64,000 nucleotides of DNA from Candidatus Poribacteria bacterium. GTDB taxonomy: Bacteria > Poribacteria > WGA-4E > JAJDTR01. The notes beneath the pieces are model-generated. The model worked only from the letters and a program-made list of their open reading frames with translations. It was not told the DNA's origin and did not search any database. Positions 36,691 to 56,467 of the stretch are shown here, piece after piece (position 1 is the stretch's first letter; each line of letters opens with the position of its first letter). The DNA is taken from contig CBDCTK010000002.1 of the NCBI GenBank assembly GCA_965222225.1, positions 4,960,001-5,024,000 of the forward strand, read 5' to 3'. A program made the translations under genes and the position numbers.

Positions 36691-37053
36691 TCAGGCTGAT
36701 TCCCGCTTTAGTGTTGATGGCGAAATCCTTTCATACATTGTTATCCCAACGCGCCGAATGTGCTCGGTTACATCGGGGTCGGTGATGTCGCGGAAGACGG
36801 AGAGGTCGAATGTATAGGGTAAAAGCAGGTCGTCCAAGTCGTTAGCGATGCGGAGCAGGACGTTCAGCGTCAGATCTGTTCCACCATGGAGGGTCAGGTC
36901 GATATCGGAACCAGTTTTGTGTGCCGCTTTAGCGCGTGAACCGTATAGGACCGCTTTCTCCACCTGTGGATAGCGTCTGAAGACATCGCATATTTTCCGG
37001 ATGACAGGTTCTGGCAAACCACAGTCGGATTGGTGCAGGGGGTGGGCACTCAT
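36691..37053 (-). CDS. Minimal nucleotidyltransferase (MNT) antitoxin
   Basis: LYGSRAK...GSDIDL; LPYTFDL. Confidence 0.88.
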   Translation of the reverse strand: MSAHPLHQSDCGLPEPVIRKICDVFRRYPQVEKAVLYGSRAKAAHKTGSDIDLTLHGGTDLTLNVLLRIANDLDDLLLPYTFDLSVFRDITDPDVTEHIRRVGITMYERISPSTLKRESA

Positions 37054-37475
37054 GCCGATTCCTCCTTTTTCAGGCGTTGGAGTTTCACTTGGAGCGCCTG
37101 AAATTCTGCAAAATACACTTCTAGAATCGCTTTAACAATCTGGGCGGCGGTGGACTCGTTGTAGGTGTGTGTAGTCAGGTTGCGACTTTGAATCATCGCC
37201 ATCCATATCTCGCCGTTTTCAATCAAACCCGCTCTGAACGCGGCGCGCGTGGTGTCCTTAGATCCGTATAGGATTTGTGCCCCGTGTTTTTCGAGGAAGT
37301 CCTTTAGCGTATTCCACCCCAATTCGTGTGTGTATTTGAAACGCTGTATTAAACCCAGTGCTTCCAGCTTTGAGAGTTGGCGGCGGCGTGCCAGTTCGAC
37401 AGCGTCCTTCAATTGGGAGAACACCTTGTCAAAGTTATTGGCTCTCTGAATCCAGCGGATGTCTTGGTTGTTCAT
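37050..37475 (-). CDS. HEPN-domain protein, HI0074 family (toxin partner of MNT)
   Basis: DIRWIQR, GLIQRF.YTHELGW, SRNLTTHTY (RxxxxH). Confidence 0.88.
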   Translation of the reverse strand: MNNQDIRWIQRANNFDKVFSQLKDAVELARRRQLSKLEALGLIQRFKYTHELGWNTLKDFLEKHGAQILYGSKDTTRAAFRAGLIENGEIWMAMIQSRNLTTHTYNESTAAQIVKAILEVYFAEFQALQVKLQRLKKEESA

Positions 37476-40093: not shown

Positions 40094-40610
40094 AGCCTGT
40101 TTGAATAACAGGTGGCGTTGCCGTTTTTAGGCATTTGAATATTATTACGTGTGGGAGCTCTATCGCACTCCTTATTCAGTCGCTTGATCGCAGTGCGCAC
40201 CCTACGAAATGGTGCATGATTTTAAGCCTGATTTGATGATTGAAGAGAAAATCCCTATCGCGCACGCTAACCGCTTGCCTGATTCTATTCGGTCATTTGA
40301 TCCGTTCAAGAAATGGTGGGCAGTGCCCACCCTACAAAAAATGAATGAAGTCGAGTTAAGAGCTTGTTTGGATAATGGGCGACGAAGCCATCTCTGGTAA
40401 TTTGAAAAAGGCATATTCGTTTTGTTGCCTCAGCTGGTATACGCCTGTTCAGATTCTATCTTCGATTTGATGATCGGAAATCGCACGCTAGTGCTTTCAA
40501 TGGCTAGTGGGATTTCTGTGGGAGTTCTATCGCACGGGATTTACTATAAGATCTCTATCGCCTTCGCTATTCGCTCAGTTGATCGCTCCTTGTCCAGTCG
40601 CTTGATCCCT
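40094..40610. repeat. Intergenic cluster of MITE ends, GTAG-REPs and GA-hairpin units (40153-40189, ~40250-40285, 40550-40607)
   Basis: Matches to the repeat families seen at 781-1435. Confidence 0.7.
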
Positions 40611-41008
40611 CGCGAAACAGAGAGACTCCTTCCTCAACTGTCGGACAAAGACTTCCCTCCATCAGTAGCATTGGACGATTGCAATGGGGGAGATGTGGTT
40701 ATGTCGAGACAATGGCTGTGGTTCTGTGCACGCAGTGTAGGTTCTCGGGCAGACAACTATTTCCCTTAGTCACTACTGCGAATCAGGTTACATCTCTTCT
40801 CATACCCGGCAATTGCACCTCTTTGTTTTCGATTGGCACTGTAATTGCTCAACCTTACCTAGAACTGATATGAGCGGCATGAATCTGACGCTAACGGATT
40901 ATAAAACGTGCCATCTACTCAGTGAATCGAATCTCAATCCGCAATTTTATCCAATAAATCATTCACGGTTCGTCAAGAAAGAGATATTGAACGGAGGAGG
41001 TATCTATC

Positions 41009-44000
41009 ATGAAACTGAACCCCAGCCATTTGCTGATAATCATTGCCATGCTTTGCGTGATAATAGTAGCAGGCGCAGTTTACATCGCCATTCAGAATGT
41101 GAAAGACACGACTCGCTTTACGGTAGAATCGATCTTGCCCGAAGGAACGGTTTCGCAGCGTGAGAACCTCACGTTCGCGTTTTCCGATCCGGTTGTCGAA
41201 GAGCGCTTACTCGATAAGGACCTGGACTATTCTCCGATTGAGTTTTCGCCTGCGATTCCGGGAAAATTTCGTTGGGTAGACACGGATAGGCTTCGGTTTT
41301 TTCCGGAAGTTACGTTTGCTCCTTCTACCGTATACACAGCGAAAGTGTTTCCAACTGTTAGCCACTCGCCGGATCGAGTTCTGAGCGGAAAGCGGACACT
41401 TTCCTTCGCTACCGAGCGGTTCAAGGTCAAAGAATCAAGACTGTCGTTTGAGCAAGGGGCGGGCAGAAAGAGCCGAGCAAAGATCCGTGCGGCGGTTGAA
41501 TTCAACTATCCCGTCGATCCTGCCGCACTGAAGGAAAGACTCACGATATCGTATGAGGACGGAAAGACGATTTCGTATCAACCTGTGACCGAGGAAGCAT
41601 CAGATATAATCGATCTAGAAACTGTCGAGATTGAGCGTAGCGAGGATAAACAGCGCTTTGCACTTAGGCTTGAGAAAGAATTCACATGTGTCAATGGAGG
41701 GGTTGGTCTCAAGAGCGCTTACATCAACAAAACCGCATTGGAAGGACGCGGGCACTTGATTGTCGAAAATGCAGGTGTGCGGGATAGTGGTGGCGGGCAC
41801 TATCTGGAGGTTCGGTTCAATTCAAAGGTCGCCCCTGACCAAGCACAACTGTTCCTGACCGTCGAGCCGGAGGAAAATTATCAATTGGTTTCTCACCGAC
41901 GTTATTTGCGGATTGAAGGCAAATTCGAGCCTGGCGACCAACGTACTGTAAAAATAGGTCGAGGTCTATCTGCCCAAGATGGGACAACTTTAAAGCGGAA
42001 CTTTTCAACAACGCTTACGATTCCGAACCTTCAACCGAACCTGAGATTCGTCGTCGGCGGGTTATATCTTCCTAGGGATGGTAATCTGAACCTCGGTTTA
42101 GCCACGGTTAACGTGAACAAGGTGAAGGTTGGTATTGAGAAAGTGTATGCCAACAATCTTGTTTTTCTGGCGAGTTCCCAAGGTTGGTCGCGGTGGGCGA
42201 GCAACCTTGGGAAGTCTTTACACAGCGAAGAGATTAGGATAGAGTCGGTGTTAAATGAGGAGGTCACGACACCAATCTCCTTGGCAGAATATCTGGAGGG
42301 TGACCGAATCGGTATCTTCAAAGTGACTGCCCGCGAATCGGAGAGGCGGTGGCGTTACGCAACTCAGTGGGTCATGGTAACCGACCTTGGCATAATGGCG
42401 AAGAAGACGGCAGACGAATTGTGGGTGTGGGTCAATTCACTGTCCACGTTGAAAGGAGTTGAGGACGCGGTCATTGAGGTTATCAGCGACAATAATCAGA
42501 TCCTGCTGAGCGGTACTACCAATTCCGACGGTGTTGTGAAATTCTCTTCAGTATCTGAAAAGATTGAAGGATTCGTCCCATTCATGATTACCGCGGCGAA
42601 AGGCAAAGACCTTTCCTTTATTGAGTTAAATCGCCGTAAACTGTCAACCACCAACTTTGGGGTTGCCGGTGCACCATATCTGGATAGCGGTTATGAAGCA
42701 TTCGTATACACTGATCGAGGAGTTTATCGACCTGGCGAGACTGCGAACCTAGTGAATATTGTGCGTGGAAAGGGCAACCTGACTCCACCTTCACTTCCGG
42801 TGCTGATACAGGTGTTGGCGCCCGACAAACGCATCTTTCGAGAATTTCGTTCGCAGACAGGCAGGGGAGGCGCTTTCGAGCTAAGCGTGAAATTCCCTGA
42901 ATACGCCAAGACGGGGCGGTACACTGCCAAGATTCATGTTGCAGACAACGAAATCGGGCGTGCCAGCTTTCAGGTCGAGGAGTTCATGCCCGACCGGATT
43001 AAGGTCACTCTAACGACGGATAAACCGGTTTATGCGGTGGGCGACGAGATTGCAGTTGACGTTGAGGCGGTAAACCTTTTTGGGCCACCAGCGGCCAATC
43101 GGAAAGTTATAGCTAGTTGCGATATTGAGGCAAGCGAGTTTGCACCCGAGAAGTGGAGTTCGTTTACGTTTTCTAATGCTACGTTAAAGTTCAAGAAGCG
43201 TCATATTAATCTTGGCGAGTCACGTACGGATGAATTTGGAAAGACAGTCTATCACCTTCCGATACCCTCGGAATTAAAGCCGCAATCCGCGCTGAGCGGT
43301 GTATTTGTTGCCACCGTCAGCGAACCTGGAGGACGAGCAGTCAGCGCCTACAGAGGGGTGACCATTCATCCTTATACCCATTATGTTGGAATTCGTCGGT
43401 CGCCGGAAGGTTATGCAAAGCTTAATGAGGAGACGACTATCGAATATATTTCTGTCGACAAAGATGGCATCCTGTCCGGCGGGCGAAATTTGAAGCTGAC
43501 GACTTACAAAATCCGTTGGAACTCCATTTTACGCCGAAATAGTAGTGGAAATTATCAGTATGTGTCGGAAAAACAAGCAGAAATACTTCGATCGATTCCG
43601 CTTACTTCGGTAGAAGGGATTGGCAGGTATGCGTTCGCACCGGCAGAATATGGCGAATACCGGATAGAGGTTCGGGATTTGGACTCCGGGGCGTCCGCTA
43701 CGACGGAATTTTACACCGCCGGTTGGGGTTACACGCCTTGGGCAATGGAAAATCCGGACCGGCTTGAGATTGACCTGGATAAAGCGAGCTATCAGCCCGG
43801 CGAAATTGCGAAAGCGCAGATTAAAGCCCCATTTGCCGGCAAACTCATCTTGACGATAGAGCGGGAGAAGGTATTGAGTTACCGAACGGTAACGATGCAG
43901 GAGAACACTGCTGTCATTGACATACCGATTCGGGCTGAATACAAGCCCAACGTCTACCTGTCCGCCAGTCTTATTCGCTCAACCACTTCATTGGAGAAGC

Positions 44001-46393
44001 ATTCCCCTGCCCGTGCCTTCGGTGTCGTTCCGCTTAAGTTGAACGATGACGTCAATCGATTGGCAGTCGAGATTGACGCGGTGGAGAAGTCCCGTCCGAA
44101 TCAAGAACTAGAGGTTGTCGTCCGTGTAGAGGGGCCGTCTCCAGCCAAGAGGGGAGTATACCGACTCACGGTTGCAGCGGTTGACGAAGGTATCCTTCAG
44201 TTGACAAACTTCCAGACTCCGGACGCCCACGGCTTTTTCTTTCGACGAAGGGGTTTGAATACCGACACGTTGGATCTCTATTCAGCGGTATTACCGGAAA
44301 TCGAGTCAGCAACGGGTAAGTCTAGCACTGGCGGCGGCGATGGGGTTGATGCGGGGCGAAAAAAGCGGTTGAGCACCGTCAGCGTGACGCGAGTGAAGCC
44401 TGTCTCGCTTTGGTCGGGTATTGTTACGACTGATGACATGGGCACAAGTGTCGTTCGATTCAGTATACCACAGTTCAACGGCACACTACGTTTGATGGCG
44501 GTTGCGTTCGCAGGCGATCGGTTCGGAAAGGCTCAGGAATCCGTCATCGTCCGCGATCCAATTGTTCTGACACCTACCTTTCCCCGGTTTGTATCGAGCG
44601 GCGACCGGTTCAAAGTTCCCGTGAGCGTGTTCAACGGAACGGTGGAGGACGGTGACTTTGACATCGCGCTGAGTCGGGAAGGAGCCGTTGAGATTCTGGG
44701 GGACAGCACGCAATCAATTCGTCTCAACACCGGTGAAGAGAGGCAAGTGTTGTTTGAACTTGCCGCCCAAGATGCGATGGGTAAGGTCACGTTCAACCTC
44801 TCGGCAAAGGGCAATCGCGAAAGTACACGGATGATTACAGATGTTCCAATTCGCCCGGCGACACCTCCCGTGACACAATCGGGCTACGGTGTGGTTAAGG
44901 CTGAACGCACGGCAGATTTTACTTTTCCGTCGAACTACATTGCGGGAACTGAGGAATTCGGGCTGACGCTGTCATCGTTTCCGGCAGTAAAGTTTGCCGG
45001 TGGAATCTCGTATCTTCTGCGGTATCCTTACGGGTGAGTTGAACAGGTCACGGCGGGGGTCTTCCCGCTGTTAGCTTTTGATAACATTGCCCAAACAATT
45101 GCTCCGGATCTCTTTGCGAAAGGCAGCGCGGATTATTTCATTAACGAGGGTATCGCCAAGCTAGAAAGCATGATGATGCCGGACAACTATTTCGCTTATT
45201 GGCCAGGCGGCAACTACGCGAACTACTGGAGTAGCATATTTGCCGCGCACTTCCTCGTTGAAGCGCGAAAAGCCGGCTATCAGGTTTCCGACCGCATTTA
45301 TCAGATGATGCTGGAGGCGCTGAAACGGGAAGCCAAGCACGGGGCGCGGGGGCGTAATGAACTTGAACGGATTGCCTATGCGGTTTACGTCTTGGCAGCA
45401 GCGGGTCAACCAGAGAAGAGCACCATGCTCTACTTGAAGAACAACCGATTGGAGGACCTCAGCGATTACAGCGAGTTTCAACTAGCCGGCGCGTTCGCGC
45501 TATCTGGCGACCTTGATACCGCGGTTTCAATGCTCCCAAGAGACATTTCACCCACAAGCGACGAGATGCGAGAATCGGGCGGGAATTTCAACTCTCCGGT
45601 TCGGGCTCAGGCTATCATGCTTGATGTACTGGCGGAAGTGCATCCCGACCACCCGACGGTGTCACAGCTTGTAAAGAGTTTGACTGACGCAGCATCTGGC
45701 AAAGGTCGGTGGCAAACGACTCAGGAAAACGCGTTTGCGTTCCTCGCGCTCGGAAAGATACTGAAGCAAGATATTGGAGCACAGTATACGGGCACAATCA
45801 CTATTGACGGGGAACACCTTGCGGAGTTTGGGCCAAGCGATCAACAGTATTCAAGCAAAGAGTGGGGCGGCAAGCGTGTACGGTTGAGCCTTGAGGGCAC
45901 AGGAAACAGCTACTACCAATGGCGGTCTTTTGGCGTCGAGACGGGTTCGTCTATTGAAGAGTTCGATAGGGAATTGCAGGTTAGACGCCGGTATATGTCG
46001 GAGGCTGGCGAGCCGATTGAGGACGGTGTTTTCAAGCACGGCGATATGGTTGTAGCGGAGATTTCAGTCAAGGCGCTGACCGCCAATCTGGAGAATGTGG
46101 TCGTTGTGGATATGCTTCCCGCAGGATTCGAGATTGAAAACCCGCGCTTGGAATCTCGCGCAGGTATTTCATGGCTGTCCAGAAAGCGTTTCAAGCCGGA
46201 CTACGTGGATATCCGCGATGATCGTCTCCTTTTCTTCGGCAAATTCCCGCGAAGGAAAGAGCAGAAGTTCTACTACGCGTTGAGAGCCGTTACACAGGGC
46301 GAATTCATACTGCCACCTGTCACGGCTGAAGCCATGTACGATCCGTCGAAGTCATCGGTGGCATCGGGAGGACGAATCAGTGTTGCACCGTGA
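41009..46393 (+). CDS. Bacterial alpha-2-macroglobulin (YfhM-like), 1794 aa if UGA 45035-45037 is read as selenocysteine in the thioester motif (UVEQ)
   Basis: TDRGVYRPGE, FQVEEFMPDR, AAVDEGILQLT, YPYG*VEQ, TTQENAFA, DMLPAGFEIEN, EAMYDP; the ORFs 41009-45037 and 45170-46393 are in one frame with no other stop. Confidence 0.88.
45050..45071 (+). promoter_or_regulatory. Putative bacterial SECIS element
   Basis: ACGGCGGG-GGTCTT-CCCGCTGT: 8-bp stem starting 12 nt after the UGA; loop begins GGUCU. Confidence 0.8.
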
Positions 46394-46553
46394 TGCGATG
46401 AAGGTTTCATTGACTGAATTCCGGCAACCAAATGCTAACTACCTTTATGCTCGATCTGGATTGTCAACTGCAGTGCTACAAAACCATTTGGCAATCCACC
46501 AGAGGCAAAAGCACAGCTCAATAAACCCGTTAGACGATATGGAGGAAAGGAAA

Positions 46554-47498
46554 ATGAAAAGGCAATTCTGCACGCTGAGTATGTGTTTGATCATGTTTAC
46601 AGTTACGAGTTCAATTCAAGGGAATGAGTTAAGCGACGTTGACATGGCGGAGCAGGCGAAGCATCTTATTGCTTGCTATAGGGAAGGCCATATTGATGCC
46701 TATTATACCTTGAATGCTACAGGCGGCGAGGGGTTAGTTCCAGTGTTTCTCGAAGCGCTGCGTGATTCTGACGCGAACGTTAGGATTCTCGCCGTAAATC
46801 AACTCACAAACTATAGGAAGGTAGAGACGATTGGACCGATTTCGGATGTGCTCAAGCACGACAGTCATGAAGGGGTGCGTGCAGCGGCGGCAACAAGTTT
46901 GGGGCAGCTTGGATATCGTGAGTCGAGTCCTTACTTGCTTGATGCCTTGAATGACAAATCGGCTAGCGTGGTGGAAGCGGCGATACGAGGTTTGGGATGG
47001 CTGAAATCTCGTGAAGCCGTACAACCATTGAAAGACAAACTGCGCGGCGACAACGAAAAGGACTGGGTAATTCAGCGCGCTGCCTCGGACGCCTTACAAG
47101 ACATTACTGGCGAGGACTGGGGTCAAGGTATACACGAATTCCCCCCGGAACTCAGAGTGCGTGATGCTGATATCACGCTTGAAGCCTATCAACGCGCGAT
47201 GGAATATCTCGGAGAGAGGCCTCCAGAGATGATTGATACCACCATCACTACGGAGGAGTTAACTTCGGCGGAGGGGTTTTACGTCGGGTATTGGAATCGC
47301 CTGACGATTATTGAGGGGTATCATTTGAAACAGAACCTACAAGTTTGCAAAGGTGCGCTGCAGCAAACATTGCAATCGAGGAAATTGAACGAAGTGATAG
47401 AGGATATAGAGGATGATGTCATGAACGCGCAGAAGGAGTATGATGAGGCGTGACAGAAATACGAGGATTTCTTGGCTAATAGTGTTTGGGCGGATTGA
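46554..47498 (+). CDS. Exported HEAT-repeat protein, paralogue 1 (premature TGA at 47451-47453, 15 codons before the conserved end)
   Basis: Signal peptide; PBS-lyase HEAT repeats; frame continues QKYEDFLANSVWAD as in the paralogues. Confidence 0.75.
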
Positions 47499-47655
47499 TG
47501 TACCCCCGGTAGGAAAGTATTGTAATTCATGTTGTTCCGATTTTAAGATCCTGCAGTAAACGGAACTATGCGTAGGGAACACAGATCTGCGTTCCCTACA
47601 GATACAATTGTAAAACGAAAAACATAACGTGTTGTATGCGCAAATGGAGGCAACT

Positions 47656-48594
47656 ATGATGAAACAGCTACTAACGTTGATGAGCGCGTGCTTTATATTC
47701 TCTCTAATGGTACTCTCGGTTCGGGGGAGTGGGCGACCCGACGATGACATGAAGAATCATGTGAAAGAGCTTATTGGCCGCTATAAGCAGGGGGATCGTG
47801 AAGCCTACGACCTACTGATTGTAAACATTGATGAAAAATTGTTTCCGGTGTATCTTGAGGCGCTCAAGGATGCTGACGCCAAAGTTAGAAGGCTTGCGAT
47901 TAGGCAACTCGCGAGGTATAAGAAAAAGGAAGCTATCGCACCGATAGGACAGTTGCTTGAGAGCGACGCCAGCGAAGGCGTGCGTCGGGAGGCAGCTTCA
48001 AGATTGGGGCATTTGACCTACCCAGAGTCTAGTCGACTTCTGATTGATGCGCTGGACGACGACTCACAGCGTGTGGTGGAAGCAGTGATACGAGCGTTAG
48101 GTAGGTTGAAGTCTAAGGAAGCGATTGAGTCGTTGAAGGAGAAGCTGAAAGGCGACAATGAAAAAGACTGGGAAATTCAACGCGCTGCTGCTTACGCGCT
48201 GCGAGTCATCACTGGTATGGATTGGAGTGAAGGTATACATGAAGTTCCGCCGGAATACCGGACGCGTGATGAAGAGTTTACATTTGAAGCATACGAACGC
48301 GCAATTCGCTACTTTTCTAGATCTGTGCCTACTATGATTGACACGACAATCATAATTGATGAGTTGATCCACAGCGAGATGTTCTATATCGGCGGTCCAA
48401 ATCGTTTTACCATTCTTCAGGGATTCCACCTAAAGCAAAATGGACAACTACAGGAAAAAAACCTTAATCAGGCTCTGTTAGCACAGAAGTTAGGTACAAT
48501 GACGGACGATGATGTGACCAAAGCTAATGCCGCGTACGATCAAGCGCAGAAAAAGTACAAAGATTTCTTGGGGAAAAGTGGATGGGCGGATTGA
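47656..48594 (+). CDS. Exported HEAT-repeat protein, paralogue 2
   Basis: LEALKDADAKVRRLA-type repeats; ends GWAD. Confidence 0.85.
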   Translation: MMKQLLTLMSACFIFSLMVLSVRGSGRPDDDMKNHVKELIGRYKQGDREAYDLLIVNIDEKLFPVYLEALKDADAKVRRLAIRQLARYKKKEAIAPIGQLLESDASEGVRREAASRLGHLTYPESSRLLIDALDDDSQRVVEAVIRALGRLKSKEAIESLKEKLKGDNEKDWEIQRAAAYALRVITGMDWSEGIHEVPPEYRTRDEEFTFEAYERAIRYFSRSVPTMIDTTIIIDELIHSEMFYIGGPNRFTILQGFHLKQNGQLQEKNLNQALLAQKLGTMTDDDVTKANAAYDQAQKKYKDFLGKSGWAD

Positions 48595-48741: not shown

Positions 48742-49680
48742 ATGTCAGAAAAACTGTTGATTTTCTTGGGCACATGCTTGTTAAGCTTTTCTATTACGTC
48801 TTCAATCCAAGGAAACGGGGCGCTGAAAGGTGAAGACATTGCGGCACAGGCAAGAGAGCTAATCGTGCGTTATGGGCAGGGGGATTCGGGAGTCTATTAC
48901 AGGATGGCAAACACTAGAGATGATAGGTTGGTTCCGGTGTTTCTTGAAGCACTCAAAAATTCCAACTCCAGGATAAAGATTCTTGCGATAAGTCAGCTTC
49001 GAAAATACGGAAAAAAAGAAACTATCGTCCCCATGGTGGAATTGCTCAAACACGACGAAAATGCCGACGTACGTGCGGCAGCCGCTGCCAGTTTAGCTCG
49101 GTTTCGCACCGCGGAGTCAAGCCAAGATCTCCTCAATGCTCTACATGATGAGTCCCCCAGGGTAGTAAGGGCTGCGATAAGGGTATTGGGACACCTAAAG
49201 TCAAAGGAAGCGGTTGTACCGCTGAAGGCGAGATTGTCCATAGATAACGAAAAGAATTGGGCAGTTCGGCGGGCCGCTAAAGACGCATTGGAATCCATCA
49301 TTGGTGCTGACTGGAAGCGAAGCATGCGCGAGATTCCGCCCCAGTTTCGAGCACGAAATGAAGATATCACGCATCAAGCCTATGAGGCCGCGATGGAGAA
49401 TCTGGGTAGCGCGCTTGGTAAAATTAACAGAGCTGGCTCAATAAGGGAACTAAGTGTAGATGAGGAATTCTTACGCGACTATGGAAAGACGGTAATTGTT
49501 ATTGAAGGATACTACCTGAAACAGAACGCAGAGATTTACAGAAAGGCGCTTGAAAACGCACGGCTTTCAGTGGAATTAGGTGAGATGACGAATGATGATG
49601 TGACAAAAGCCGAAGCCACTTACAATCAAGCCCAGTCTAGGTACGAGGATTTTCTGGCAAACAGTGTTTGGGCGGATTGA
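48742..49680 (+). CDS. Exported HEAT-repeat protein, paralogue 3
   Basis: DENADVRAAAAASL-type repeats; ends SVWAD. Confidence 0.85.
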   Translation: MSEKLLIFLGTCLLSFSITSSIQGNGALKGEDIAAQARELIVRYGQGDSGVYYRMANTRDDRLVPVFLEALKNSNSRIKILAISQLRKYGKKETIVPMVELLKHDENADVRAAAAASLARFRTAESSQDLLNALHDESPRVVRAAIRVLGHLKSKEAVVPLKARLSIDNEKNWAVRRAAKDALESIIGADWKRSMREIPPQFRARNEDITHQAYEAAMENLGSALGKINRAGSIRELSVDEEFLRDYGKTVIVIEGYYLKQNAEIYRKALENARLSVELGEMTNDDVTKAEATYNQAQSRYEDFLANSVWAD

Positions 49681-55783: not shown

Positions 55784-55858
55784 CGGGGCGTAGCGCAGTC
55801 CGGTTAGCGCATCTGCTTTGGGAGCAGAGGGTCGGAGGTTCGAATCCTCTCGCCCCGA
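55784..55858 (+). tRNA. tRNA-Pro(TGG)
   Basis: TCTGC-TTTGGGA-GCAGA anticodon arm. Confidence 0.95.
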
Positions 55859-55878
55859 TTCTTAAATTGATTGCTGAC

Positions 55879-55952
55879 GCGCCCGTAGCTCAGTTGGATA
55901 GAGCAACTGACTTCTAATCAGTAGGCCGCGGGTTCAAATCCTGCCGGGCGTA
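55879..55952 (+). tRNA. tRNA-Arg(TCT)
   Basis: ACTGA-CTTCTAA-TCAGT anticodon arm. Confidence 0.95.
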
Positions 55953-55966
55953 TATCCTTCCCCAAT

Positions 55967-56043
55967 GGTGGGTGTAGCTCAGGCGGTAGAGCGCTTGACT
56001 GTGGATCAAGTGGTCGTGGGTTCAAATCCCATCACCCACCCCA
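55967..56043 (+). tRNA. tRNA-His(GTG)
   Basis: CTTGA-CTGTGGA-TCAAG; G-1 and encoded CCA. Confidence 0.95.
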
Positions 56044-56177
56044 TTTCTTATGAGAATATCGAATATGGCGCTAAGGAACCGGATGGCTACCGTTATTGGG
56101 GCGCAAGCTTAACGTGACGACTCCAAAAATGAATCCGGGCAATTCGTTACTCTTTCGTGAACAGTATTCCGTCGTAT

Positions 56178-56251
56178 GCGTCCGTGGTTCAATTGGATAG
56201 AGCAATAGACTTCGGATCTATAAGTTGGGGGTTCGAGTCCCTCCGGACGCA
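56178..56251 (+). tRNA. tRNA-Arg(TCG)
   Basis: ATAGA-CTTCGGA-TCTAT anticodon arm. Confidence 0.93.
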
Positions 56252-56261
56252 TGTTTCTGAT

Positions 56262-56334
56262 GCGTCGTTAGCTCAATTGGCAGAGCATCTGACTCTTAAT
56301 CAGGTGGTTGAAGGTTCGATTCCTTCACGGCGCA
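56262..56334 (+). tRNA. tRNA-Lys(CTT)
   Basis: TCTGA-CTCTTAA-TCAGG anticodon arm. Confidence 0.95.
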
Positions 56335-56348
56335 CTAAATTCCTTTGT

Positions 56349-56433
56349 GGGCGGGTGTTGGAATTGGTAGACAAGATAGATTTAGGATCTATTGGGGTTA
56401 TTCCTCGTGAGGGTTCGAGTCCCTTCTCGCCCA
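56349..56433 (+). tRNA. tRNA-Leu(TAG)
   Basis: ATAGA-TTTAGGA-TCTAT; long variable arm. Confidence 0.95.
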
Positions 56434-56467
56434 TCATTCCGGATTCGCACGTAAACAGGAGGTCTAC

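Follow-up and report, generated by a model that had tools for sequence, protein, structure and literature searches.

A UGA codon at the thioester cysteine of a poribacterial alpha-2-macroglobulin: a candidate selenoprotein with a putative selenoester warhead

An alpha-2-macroglobulin gene with one in-frame UGA

Here, we analysed a macroglobulin gene in a 64,000-nucleotide stretch of DNA from a Candidatus Poribacteria bacterium (assembly GCA_965222225.1, contig CBDCTK010000002.1, positions 4,960,001 to 5,024,000 of the forward strand; hereafter, the window, in whose coordinates positions are given). The gene occupies 41009..46393 on the forward strand and, read through a TGA at 45035..45037, encodes a bacterial alpha-2-macroglobulin (A2M) of 1794 residues, in which selenocysteine (Sec, U) would stand at residue 1343 (U1343), the thioester-Cys position of the CxEQ motif. 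The initial annotation of the window, made from the sequence alone, had put forward this reading, and translation reproduced the length, the single TGA and the residue number. The TGA is the sole in-frame stop, with 1342 residues before it and 451 codons after it, the frame ending in a terminal TGA at 46391-46393, and the surrounding sequence reads LLRYPYG-TGA-VEQVTAGVFPLL. Our analysis strongly supports recoding of this UGA via SelB and tRNA-Sec, directed by a downstream hairpin, to yield one 1794-residue protein; by every computable criterion for a bacterial selenoprotein, the gene qualifies as one.

In the read-through protein, the Pfam domains bMG3, MG2, bMG5, bMG6, A2M_BRD, A2M and bMG10 all score above cut-off and lie on both sides of the TGA. 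The bait-region domain (PF07703, residues 919-1065, E 7.5e-25) is encoded at 43763..44203, and the bMG10 (MG8-type) C-terminal domain (residues 1656-1779, E 7.3e-28) at 45974..46345, 3′ of the UGA. A hydrophobic segment at approximately residues 8-28 of the translation (41030..41092) is likely a signal or membrane anchor; inspection of the translated N-terminus revealed no canonical lipobox. Residues 292-1793 align to the Salmonella A2M structure 4U48 with an E value of 3.6e-120, and also to Escherichia coli YfhM (5A42, 4ZIQ and 4RTD). Local alignment to these solved structures places the U1343 codon on the Cys of YPYGCLEQ in E. coli YfhM, bearing out the earlier claim that the TGA coincides with the catalytic thioester Cys. 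The acyl partner in the resulting UxEQ motif, Gln1346, is encoded by the CAG at 45044..45046.

Of the 25 frames in the window that run for at least 300 codons from stop to stop, 12 close with TGA, the commonest terminator of long frames there, and because TGA terminates such frames normally, a reassigned genetic code fails to explain the open frame. The genome (5.70 Mb in 2 contigs, 94.9% complete) contains the Sec machinery on which the proposal depends. A contiguous cluster at G000:C2:1590238-1593758 comprises selA (601 bits), selB (343 bits) and the tRNA-Sec gene (76 bits); selD lies at G000:C2:2933348-2934274 (locus L010). The selD gene is likewise interrupted by an in-frame TGA (TVECAG-U-ASKLDPGDL), after which comes a hairpin of 8 bp whose loop is G-rich and whose geometry resembles that of the macroglobulin hairpin; because of this TGA and hairpin, SelD of this genome is itself predicted to be a selenoprotein. 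Sec use appears to be universal in this order of Poribacteria, with selA above cut-off in all 41 sampled genomes, and the change from Cys to Sec would therefore have arisen in a lineage that already used Sec. A query search found one A2M locus in the genome, the Sec form. In NCBIfam, a model for the macroglobulin protein was not found, so that the protein lies outside any curated selenoprotein model there.

Conservation of the codon and selection on the 3′ part

A 594-residue query around the site was searched against the genomes of the genus (n=10) and of other genera of the order. All ten genus genomes have a single locus with exactly one TGA, at the same codon, at 85-88% protein identity. 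By contrast, in 22 genomes of the other genera, the 27 strong matches contain no stop, and the codon is TGC or TGT in sister genera. The Cys macroglobulins of other Candidatus Poribacteria (for example, P0002-P0008; L031-L040) are orthologues with 57-71% identity and identical architecture and length, carrying the motif YP[YH]GC[ILV]EQTTS[KRM]VFPLL and reading TGC or TGT where the window gene has TGA. These data strongly support the fixation of a Cys-to-Sec swap in one Poribacteria genus.

The initial annotation had cautioned that the TGA could be a sequencing or assembly error for TGC or TGT. Only the general prior of single-base errors speaks for an error of this kind, which we regard as extremely unlikely, given that 10 congeneric genomes, each assembled independently, and 2 more distant Poribacteria have the TGA, and that the two contigs from other runs that cover the codon do not differ from the window. 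Across nine studies, 20 public runs contain the stretch; seven of these runs are RNA libraries. Contigs from four runs were compared with the window, and the codon is covered in two of these (X17 and X19 do not reach the TGA). One contig, 1488 nt long and derived from a metatranscriptome library, spans 44987-45696, and the other, of 2211 nt and from a different study, spans 44400-45684, both without any difference at 45035-45037.

Relaxed selection on the 3′ part, which would have told against the initial annotation, was looked for and is absent. Among the 10 orthologues (mean dS ~0.8), the ratio of nonsynonymous to synonymous substitution rates (dN/dS) is 0.103 over 603 codons upstream of the TGA and 0.083 over 451 codons downstream of it; for the 45 codons from the TGA to the first downstream ATG, the ratio is 0.082. 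Because downstream dN/dS is as low as upstream dN/dS, the pattern of substitution indicates that the 3′ part is translated in this frame, under constraint equal to that on the 5′ part.

Two readings without Sec have to be weighed against this constraint. Under the first, the TGA is a true stop, and the gene is either a pseudogene or encodes a truncated 1342-residue protein without the thioester domain. Public gene calls agree with such a stop. In a collection of 5.8 billion proteins, the best full-length relatives are 71% identical, among the matches listed, with no full-length relative above that value, and Cys occupies the site in 120 of the 120 matches listed; relatives with 85-98% identity are represented only by their C-terminal parts, filed as individual proteins of 405-448 residues and labelled 'hypothetical protein' or 'YfaS'. 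However, conservation of the TGA in all ten species at dS ~0.8 and a downstream dN/dS of 0.08, which extends to the 45 codons without a conserved start, argue against termination at this codon. Gene callers split the Sec forms into two open reading frames (ORFs), and these forms are therefore missed by selenoproteome catalogues and macroglobulin surveys.

Under the second reading, the gene is genuinely split, so that MG1-MG7 and the thioester domain-MG8 part are made separately and assemble as a thioester-less macroglobulin of the MagD type. Thioester-less macroglobulins exist in bacteria, and in some species a GTG 4 codons past the TGA is used as a start by gene callers, giving the 448-residue call. 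This start is not conserved, though, codon +4 being GTC in 8 of the 10 species, ATT in one and GTG in one, and the codons directly after the TGA are conserved as protein. Nor would a split gene be expected to break exactly at the Cys codon, always with TGA, in at least five lineages that all possess Sec machinery.

A SECIS-like hairpin and the recurrence of TGA in other phyla

The selenocysteine insertion sequence (SECIS) that the initial annotation placed after the TGA corresponds to a hairpin at 45050..45071, with the apical loop GUCU at 45059-45062 and a folding energy of -14.0 kcal/mol, which is conserved and passes published criteria for bacterial SECIS (bSECIS) elements. The G+C-rich stem of 8-9 bp (9 bp in the test against these criteria) begins 12 nt past the UGA, with 21 nt from the UGA to the loop. 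As given in the legend to Fig. 2 of PMC13188914, the criteria are a loop of 3-9 nt with G within its first two positions, a stem of 4-16 bp, a spacing of 16-37 nt and a minimum free energy (MFE) of no more than -7.5 kcal/mol; the window hairpin satisfies all four (GUCU, 9 bp, 21 nt and -14.0 kcal/mol). Rfam yielded only chance-level matches (E 5-8), none of them to a bacterial SECIS family.

The significance of the hairpin derives from comparative data because a single fold is uninformative. Codons +6 to +10, which cover most of the hairpin's stem and loop, have zero synonymous variation across the 10 species, against a gene-wide mean synonymous diversity of 0.35, and the two variable stem positions stay paired, through a change from G-U to A-U and another from G-C to G-U. 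Of 110 windows, none has lower synonymous diversity than the 7-codon hairpin window. It is equalled by a second stretch of very low synonymous diversity among the 10 congeners, at ~44990-45015 (codons -14 to -7 from the TGA), which may belong to a larger recoding structure.

Sec and Cys forms differ in the same place. The Sec forms read EQ[VI]TAGVFPLL where the Poribacteria Cys orthologues read EQTTS[KRM]VFPLL, and the AG codons of the Poribacteria Sec forms, GCG GGG, constitute the 5′ arm of the stem. Across 63 sequences, a bulge-free hairpin that passes the bSECIS test is present in 22 of the 29 Sec forms and in none of the 34 Cys forms; Poribacteria Cys forms account for 0/10. Local MFE averages -13.2 kcal/mol in Sec forms versus -6.3 kcal/mol in Cys forms, and the difference has the same direction in all four lineages that contain both. 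The presence of a SECIS-like hairpin in Sec forms and its absence from Cys forms is a further argument against a true stop. Among the Sec forms, the hairpin sequence differs lineage by lineage. In Myxococcota, the set to which the formal pair count applies, compensatory changes affect 2 of the 7 stem pairs, and 92.9% of cells are paired, compared with 16-61% when the partner columns are slid; the hairpins of Planctomycetota and Armatimonadota differ in the register of the 3′ arm, with no common structure string.

To gauge recurrence, we scanned one genome per prokaryotic species with the pattern YP[YH]G-TGA-[hydrophobic]-EQ, obtaining 36 loci. Macroglobulin-like frames flank the codon in 25 of them, of which 10 belong to Poribacteria and 15 to metagenome-assembled genomes (MAGs) elsewhere. 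The remaining 11 (L041, L043, L045, L049, L050, L053, L055, L064, L065, L070 and L075) were set aside as probable chance matches, with short frames and no macroglobulin context. The 15 MAGs are labelled Myxococcaceae, Myxococcales, Polyangia or 'Deltaproteobacteria', Planctomycetota, Verrucomicrobiota, Vicinamibacteria, Armatimonadota and Abditibacteriales, so that TGA with long flanking frames is found in Myxococcota, Planctomycetota, Verrucomicrobiota, Acidobacteriota, Armatimonadota and Abditibacteriota. The initial annotation had anticipated an independent TGA at this codon alongside Cys homologues, and both occur: TGA in all ten congeners with TGC or TGT in sister genera, and TGA forms in other phyla. 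Of these other TGA-form genomes, 14 of 15 have selA above cut-off, and the fifteenth has selB.

Searches within individual groups revealed mixtures of the two forms. Strong matches were found in 12 of 41 genomes for the Myxococcota orthologous group, with TGA at the codon in 4 and Cys in 8, and in 4 of 41 for Planctomycetales, with TGA in all 4, which are 38-46% identical to the query. In Verrucomicrobiales, 21 of 41 genomes have a strong match, one with TGA at the codon; in Armatimonadota, the same fraction (21 of 41) includes 2 with TGA and one decayed fragment. Three relatives of a Planctomycetales MAG locus (L090-L092) read YP[YH]G-U-T-EQ, which falls outside the scanned pattern, and because the pattern missed them, Sec macroglobulins must be spread more widely than the 25 genome matches. 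A gene tree of 63 rows, from which L062 was left out as too short and L077, L085, L087 and L088 as duplicates of L042, L046, L051 and L063, requires 9 changes between Sec and Cys, and well-supported branches make at least 5 of these unavoidable. These results strongly support the Cys-to-Sec swap having arisen independently several times in other phyla.

The identity of the stop codon provides a control. When the motif was restricted to YPYG, and TGA, TAA, TAG or TGG was allowed at the codon, metagenomes yielded 54 matches: 36 TGA, 8 TAA, 4 TAG and 6 TGG. All 26 matches with long frames on both sides have TGA, and none has TAA, TAG or TGG; the 26 do not represent as many independent organisms because contigs of some MAGs recur in the metagenomes, L134 and L069, for instance, being one and the same record. 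Furthermore, stops inside strong macroglobulin matches are TGA in every case in the genus, Myxococcota, Planctomycetales and Armatimonadota searches. Exclusive use of TGA at the codon is a prediction of Sec recoding that neither pseudogenes nor split genes make. Thus, a true stop is very unlikely given 26 of 26 open frames with TGA in a macroglobulin context, and we assign the split gene a similarly slight chance.

Several points weigh on the other side. Taken alone, the window hairpin is no stabler than shuffled sequences (z = -1.15, with 21 of 200 shuffles folding at least as well), and the bSECIS test, here a strict bulge-free implementation of the criteria of PMC13188914, is failed by 7 of the 29 Sec forms and by 14 of the 26 metagenome TGA forms. 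The Mann-Whitney p-value of the comparison of MFE between Sec and Cys forms is overstated because related genomes are not independent, and the gene tree comes from a quick IQ-TREE maximum-likelihood search, not a careful one. In all Sec forms examined, TGA is the thioester codon and xEQ is kept, a conservation that is partly built in because the genome pattern required TGA and xEQ and the regular expression also required EQ. The frame of L062, from a Verrucomicrobiota MAG, has TGA at the thioester codon but ends at another TGA 19 codons on; recent pseudogenisation or an error of assembly may account for this locus, and a metagenome contig with the same motif (L160) is open for 480 codons. The decayed Armatimonadota fragment (L111, G170:C7:40038-43538) is 78% identical over 157 residues before its frame breaks, which suggests that the gene was lost in that lineage; as its TGA is not at the thioester codon, it was rejected as a Sec form. 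Contigs from RNA libraries attest the presence of the sequence and are no proof of transcription or translation. Finally, selenium incorporation, the full-length product and the selenoester considered below are all predictions from sequence.

A putative selenoester warhead and its context

Among known systems, the closest comparison is with E. coli YfhM (ECAM) and Salmonella enterica A2M (5A42, 4ZIQ, 4RTD and 4ZIU; 4U48, 4U4J and 4U59), which have the same domain order, approximately 1500 alignable residues (E ~1e-120) and the warhead motif YPYG-x-[VL]EQ at the equivalent place. In the window protein, the warhead consists instead of the UGA/Sec codon with its SECIS hairpin, the Gln being kept. 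The protein also differs from YfhM in an N-terminus without a canonical lipobox and in its neighbourhood, where HEAT-repeat genes adjoin it and no pbpC-like gene is found. YfhM is N-terminally anchored and extracytoplasmic, and we infer the same anchoring and location for the window protein. Eukaryotic alpha-2-macroglobulin, complement C3/C4, CD109 and insect TEPs have in common with it the thioester-domain fold and the GCxEQ warhead, with human A2M (7S62) and CD109 yielding weak sequence matches as distant relatives (E 1e-4). We know of no Sec form of the eukaryotic thioester proteins.

Three tandem paralogous genes for HEAT-repeat proteins, identified by family scan, follow on the forward strand at 46380-47453, 47629-48594 and 48742-49680. 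An overlap of 14 nt between the first of these and the macroglobulin stop makes its co-transcription with the macroglobulin gene probable. The YfhM gene is linked to pbpC, which encodes penicillin-binding protein 1C; in the window, no pbpC-like gene, transpeptidase or transglycosylase was found among ORFs of at least 100 aa between 36.7 and 52.5 kb, the stretch to which the pbpC search was limited. The other genes of that stretch, from the same scan, are a nucleotidyltransferase pair, YjgF, FabV, homocysteine S-methyltransferase and an MFS transporter, and the ORF at 40422-40769 has no family match. The nucleotidyltransferase pair, on the reverse strand at 36691-37475, comprises two overlapping small genes, one with a nucleotidyltransferase domain (Polbeta/NTP_transf_2) and one with a substrate-binding HEPN-like domain, in a layout like that of an MNT-HEPN toxin-antitoxin pair. 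Farther downstream, six tRNA genes (Pro-TGG, Arg-TCT, His-GTG, Arg-TCG, Lys-CTT and Leu-TAG) lie within ~650 bp of the forward strand, at 55784-56435.

We consider it highly probable that the gene encodes a YfhM-type A2M protease trap in which Sec has replaced the Cys of CxEQ and which would function through the following steps, modelled on the established thioester chemistry of A2M and complement. The macroglobulin would be anchored to the membrane and trap proteases outside the cytoplasm. Once the protein is exported and folded, the U1343 selenolate would attack the side-chain amide of Gln1346, producing an internal beta-selenocysteinyl-gamma-glutamyl selenoester. A protease cutting the bait region (approximately residues 919-1065) would trigger a conformational change that exposes the selenoester, and a lysine of the protease would then attack the exposed bond and become covalently tethered. 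A selenol is a better leaving group than a thiol. Because of this and of the lower pKa of the selenol, both faster formation of the selenoester and faster acyl transfer are expected. The respective pKa values quoted in PMC13188914 are 5.2 for a selenol and 8.3 for a thiol. Sec could thus confer three advantages: a selenoester might form more readily after export than a thioester, acyl transfer might be faster or broader, and free Sec might resist irreversible over-oxidation before the bond forms.

Alternatively, Sec might be inserted without forming a stable selenoester. It could then be redox-active, bind a metal, act transiently as a catalytic nucleophile or work as a selenium-dependent switch; under the last option, scarce selenium would lead to termination at the UGA and a truncated MG1-MG7 protein, and available selenium to the full-length product. 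Selenoesters are more labile than thioesters, and this lability, which also counts against our proposal, could make a selenoester unfit as a stable stored warhead in an oxidising extracytoplasmic compartment. The bond between U1343 and Gln1346 is itself a prediction, and nearly all characterised bacterial selenoproteins are oxidoreductases according to PMC13188914. Nevertheless, the full xEQ context is kept in all Sec forms examined, and the thioester-domain sequence around the site is under strong purifying selection. The swap, moreover, always occurs at the thioester Cys and nowhere else in ~1800 residues, and no A2M copy other than the Sec form was found in the genome. We therefore judge a role for Sec outside a selenoester to be improbable. 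That the Sec macroglobulin carries the first natural genetically encoded protein selenoester, an Se-(gamma-glutamyl)-selenocysteine engaged in acyl transfer rather than redox chemistry and selected independently at least five times across phyla for a faster or broader warhead, is a more demanding proposition, to which we give a little better than an even chance.

Formate dehydrogenase alpha, SelD and other known selenoproteins have in common with the window gene an in-frame UGA at a functional Cys, an immediate SECIS hairpin within the coding sequence, dependence on selABCD and a mixture of Sec and Cys relatives. The window gene differs from them in that the replaced Cys is an acyl (thioester) thiol, not a redox or metal-ligand residue. 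Full-text searches of the literature, with supplementary tables and subscription journals outside their scope, did not find a Sec-containing macroglobulin or a natural protein selenoester. The terms 'macroglobulin', 'A2M' and 'thioester' are absent from the main texts of a 2026 AEM review, deep-Sep and BSepDB, the 111-family list of BSepDB lying outside the scope of the search, and 'thioester' is absent from the main texts of the selenoproteome papers searched. Sec macroglobulins are a real and apparently unreported selenoprotein family.

Known selenoproteins are almost all oxidoreductases, whereas Sec at an acyl-bearing residue would extend the use of selenium to a covalent-capture warhead. 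For thioester proteins in general (A2M, complement and TEPs), the Sec macroglobulins would constitute a natural experiment on leaving-group chemistry versus reactivity, and the natural Sec/Cys pairs, 50-70% identical and available from several phyla, make direct comparison possible with recombinant proteins. As the only macroglobulin found in a widespread genus of sponge symbionts, the protein is relevant to how these bacteria cope with proteases of the host or of competitors. More broadly, the recurrent swap of Cys for Sec points to an undescribed non-redox use of selenium.

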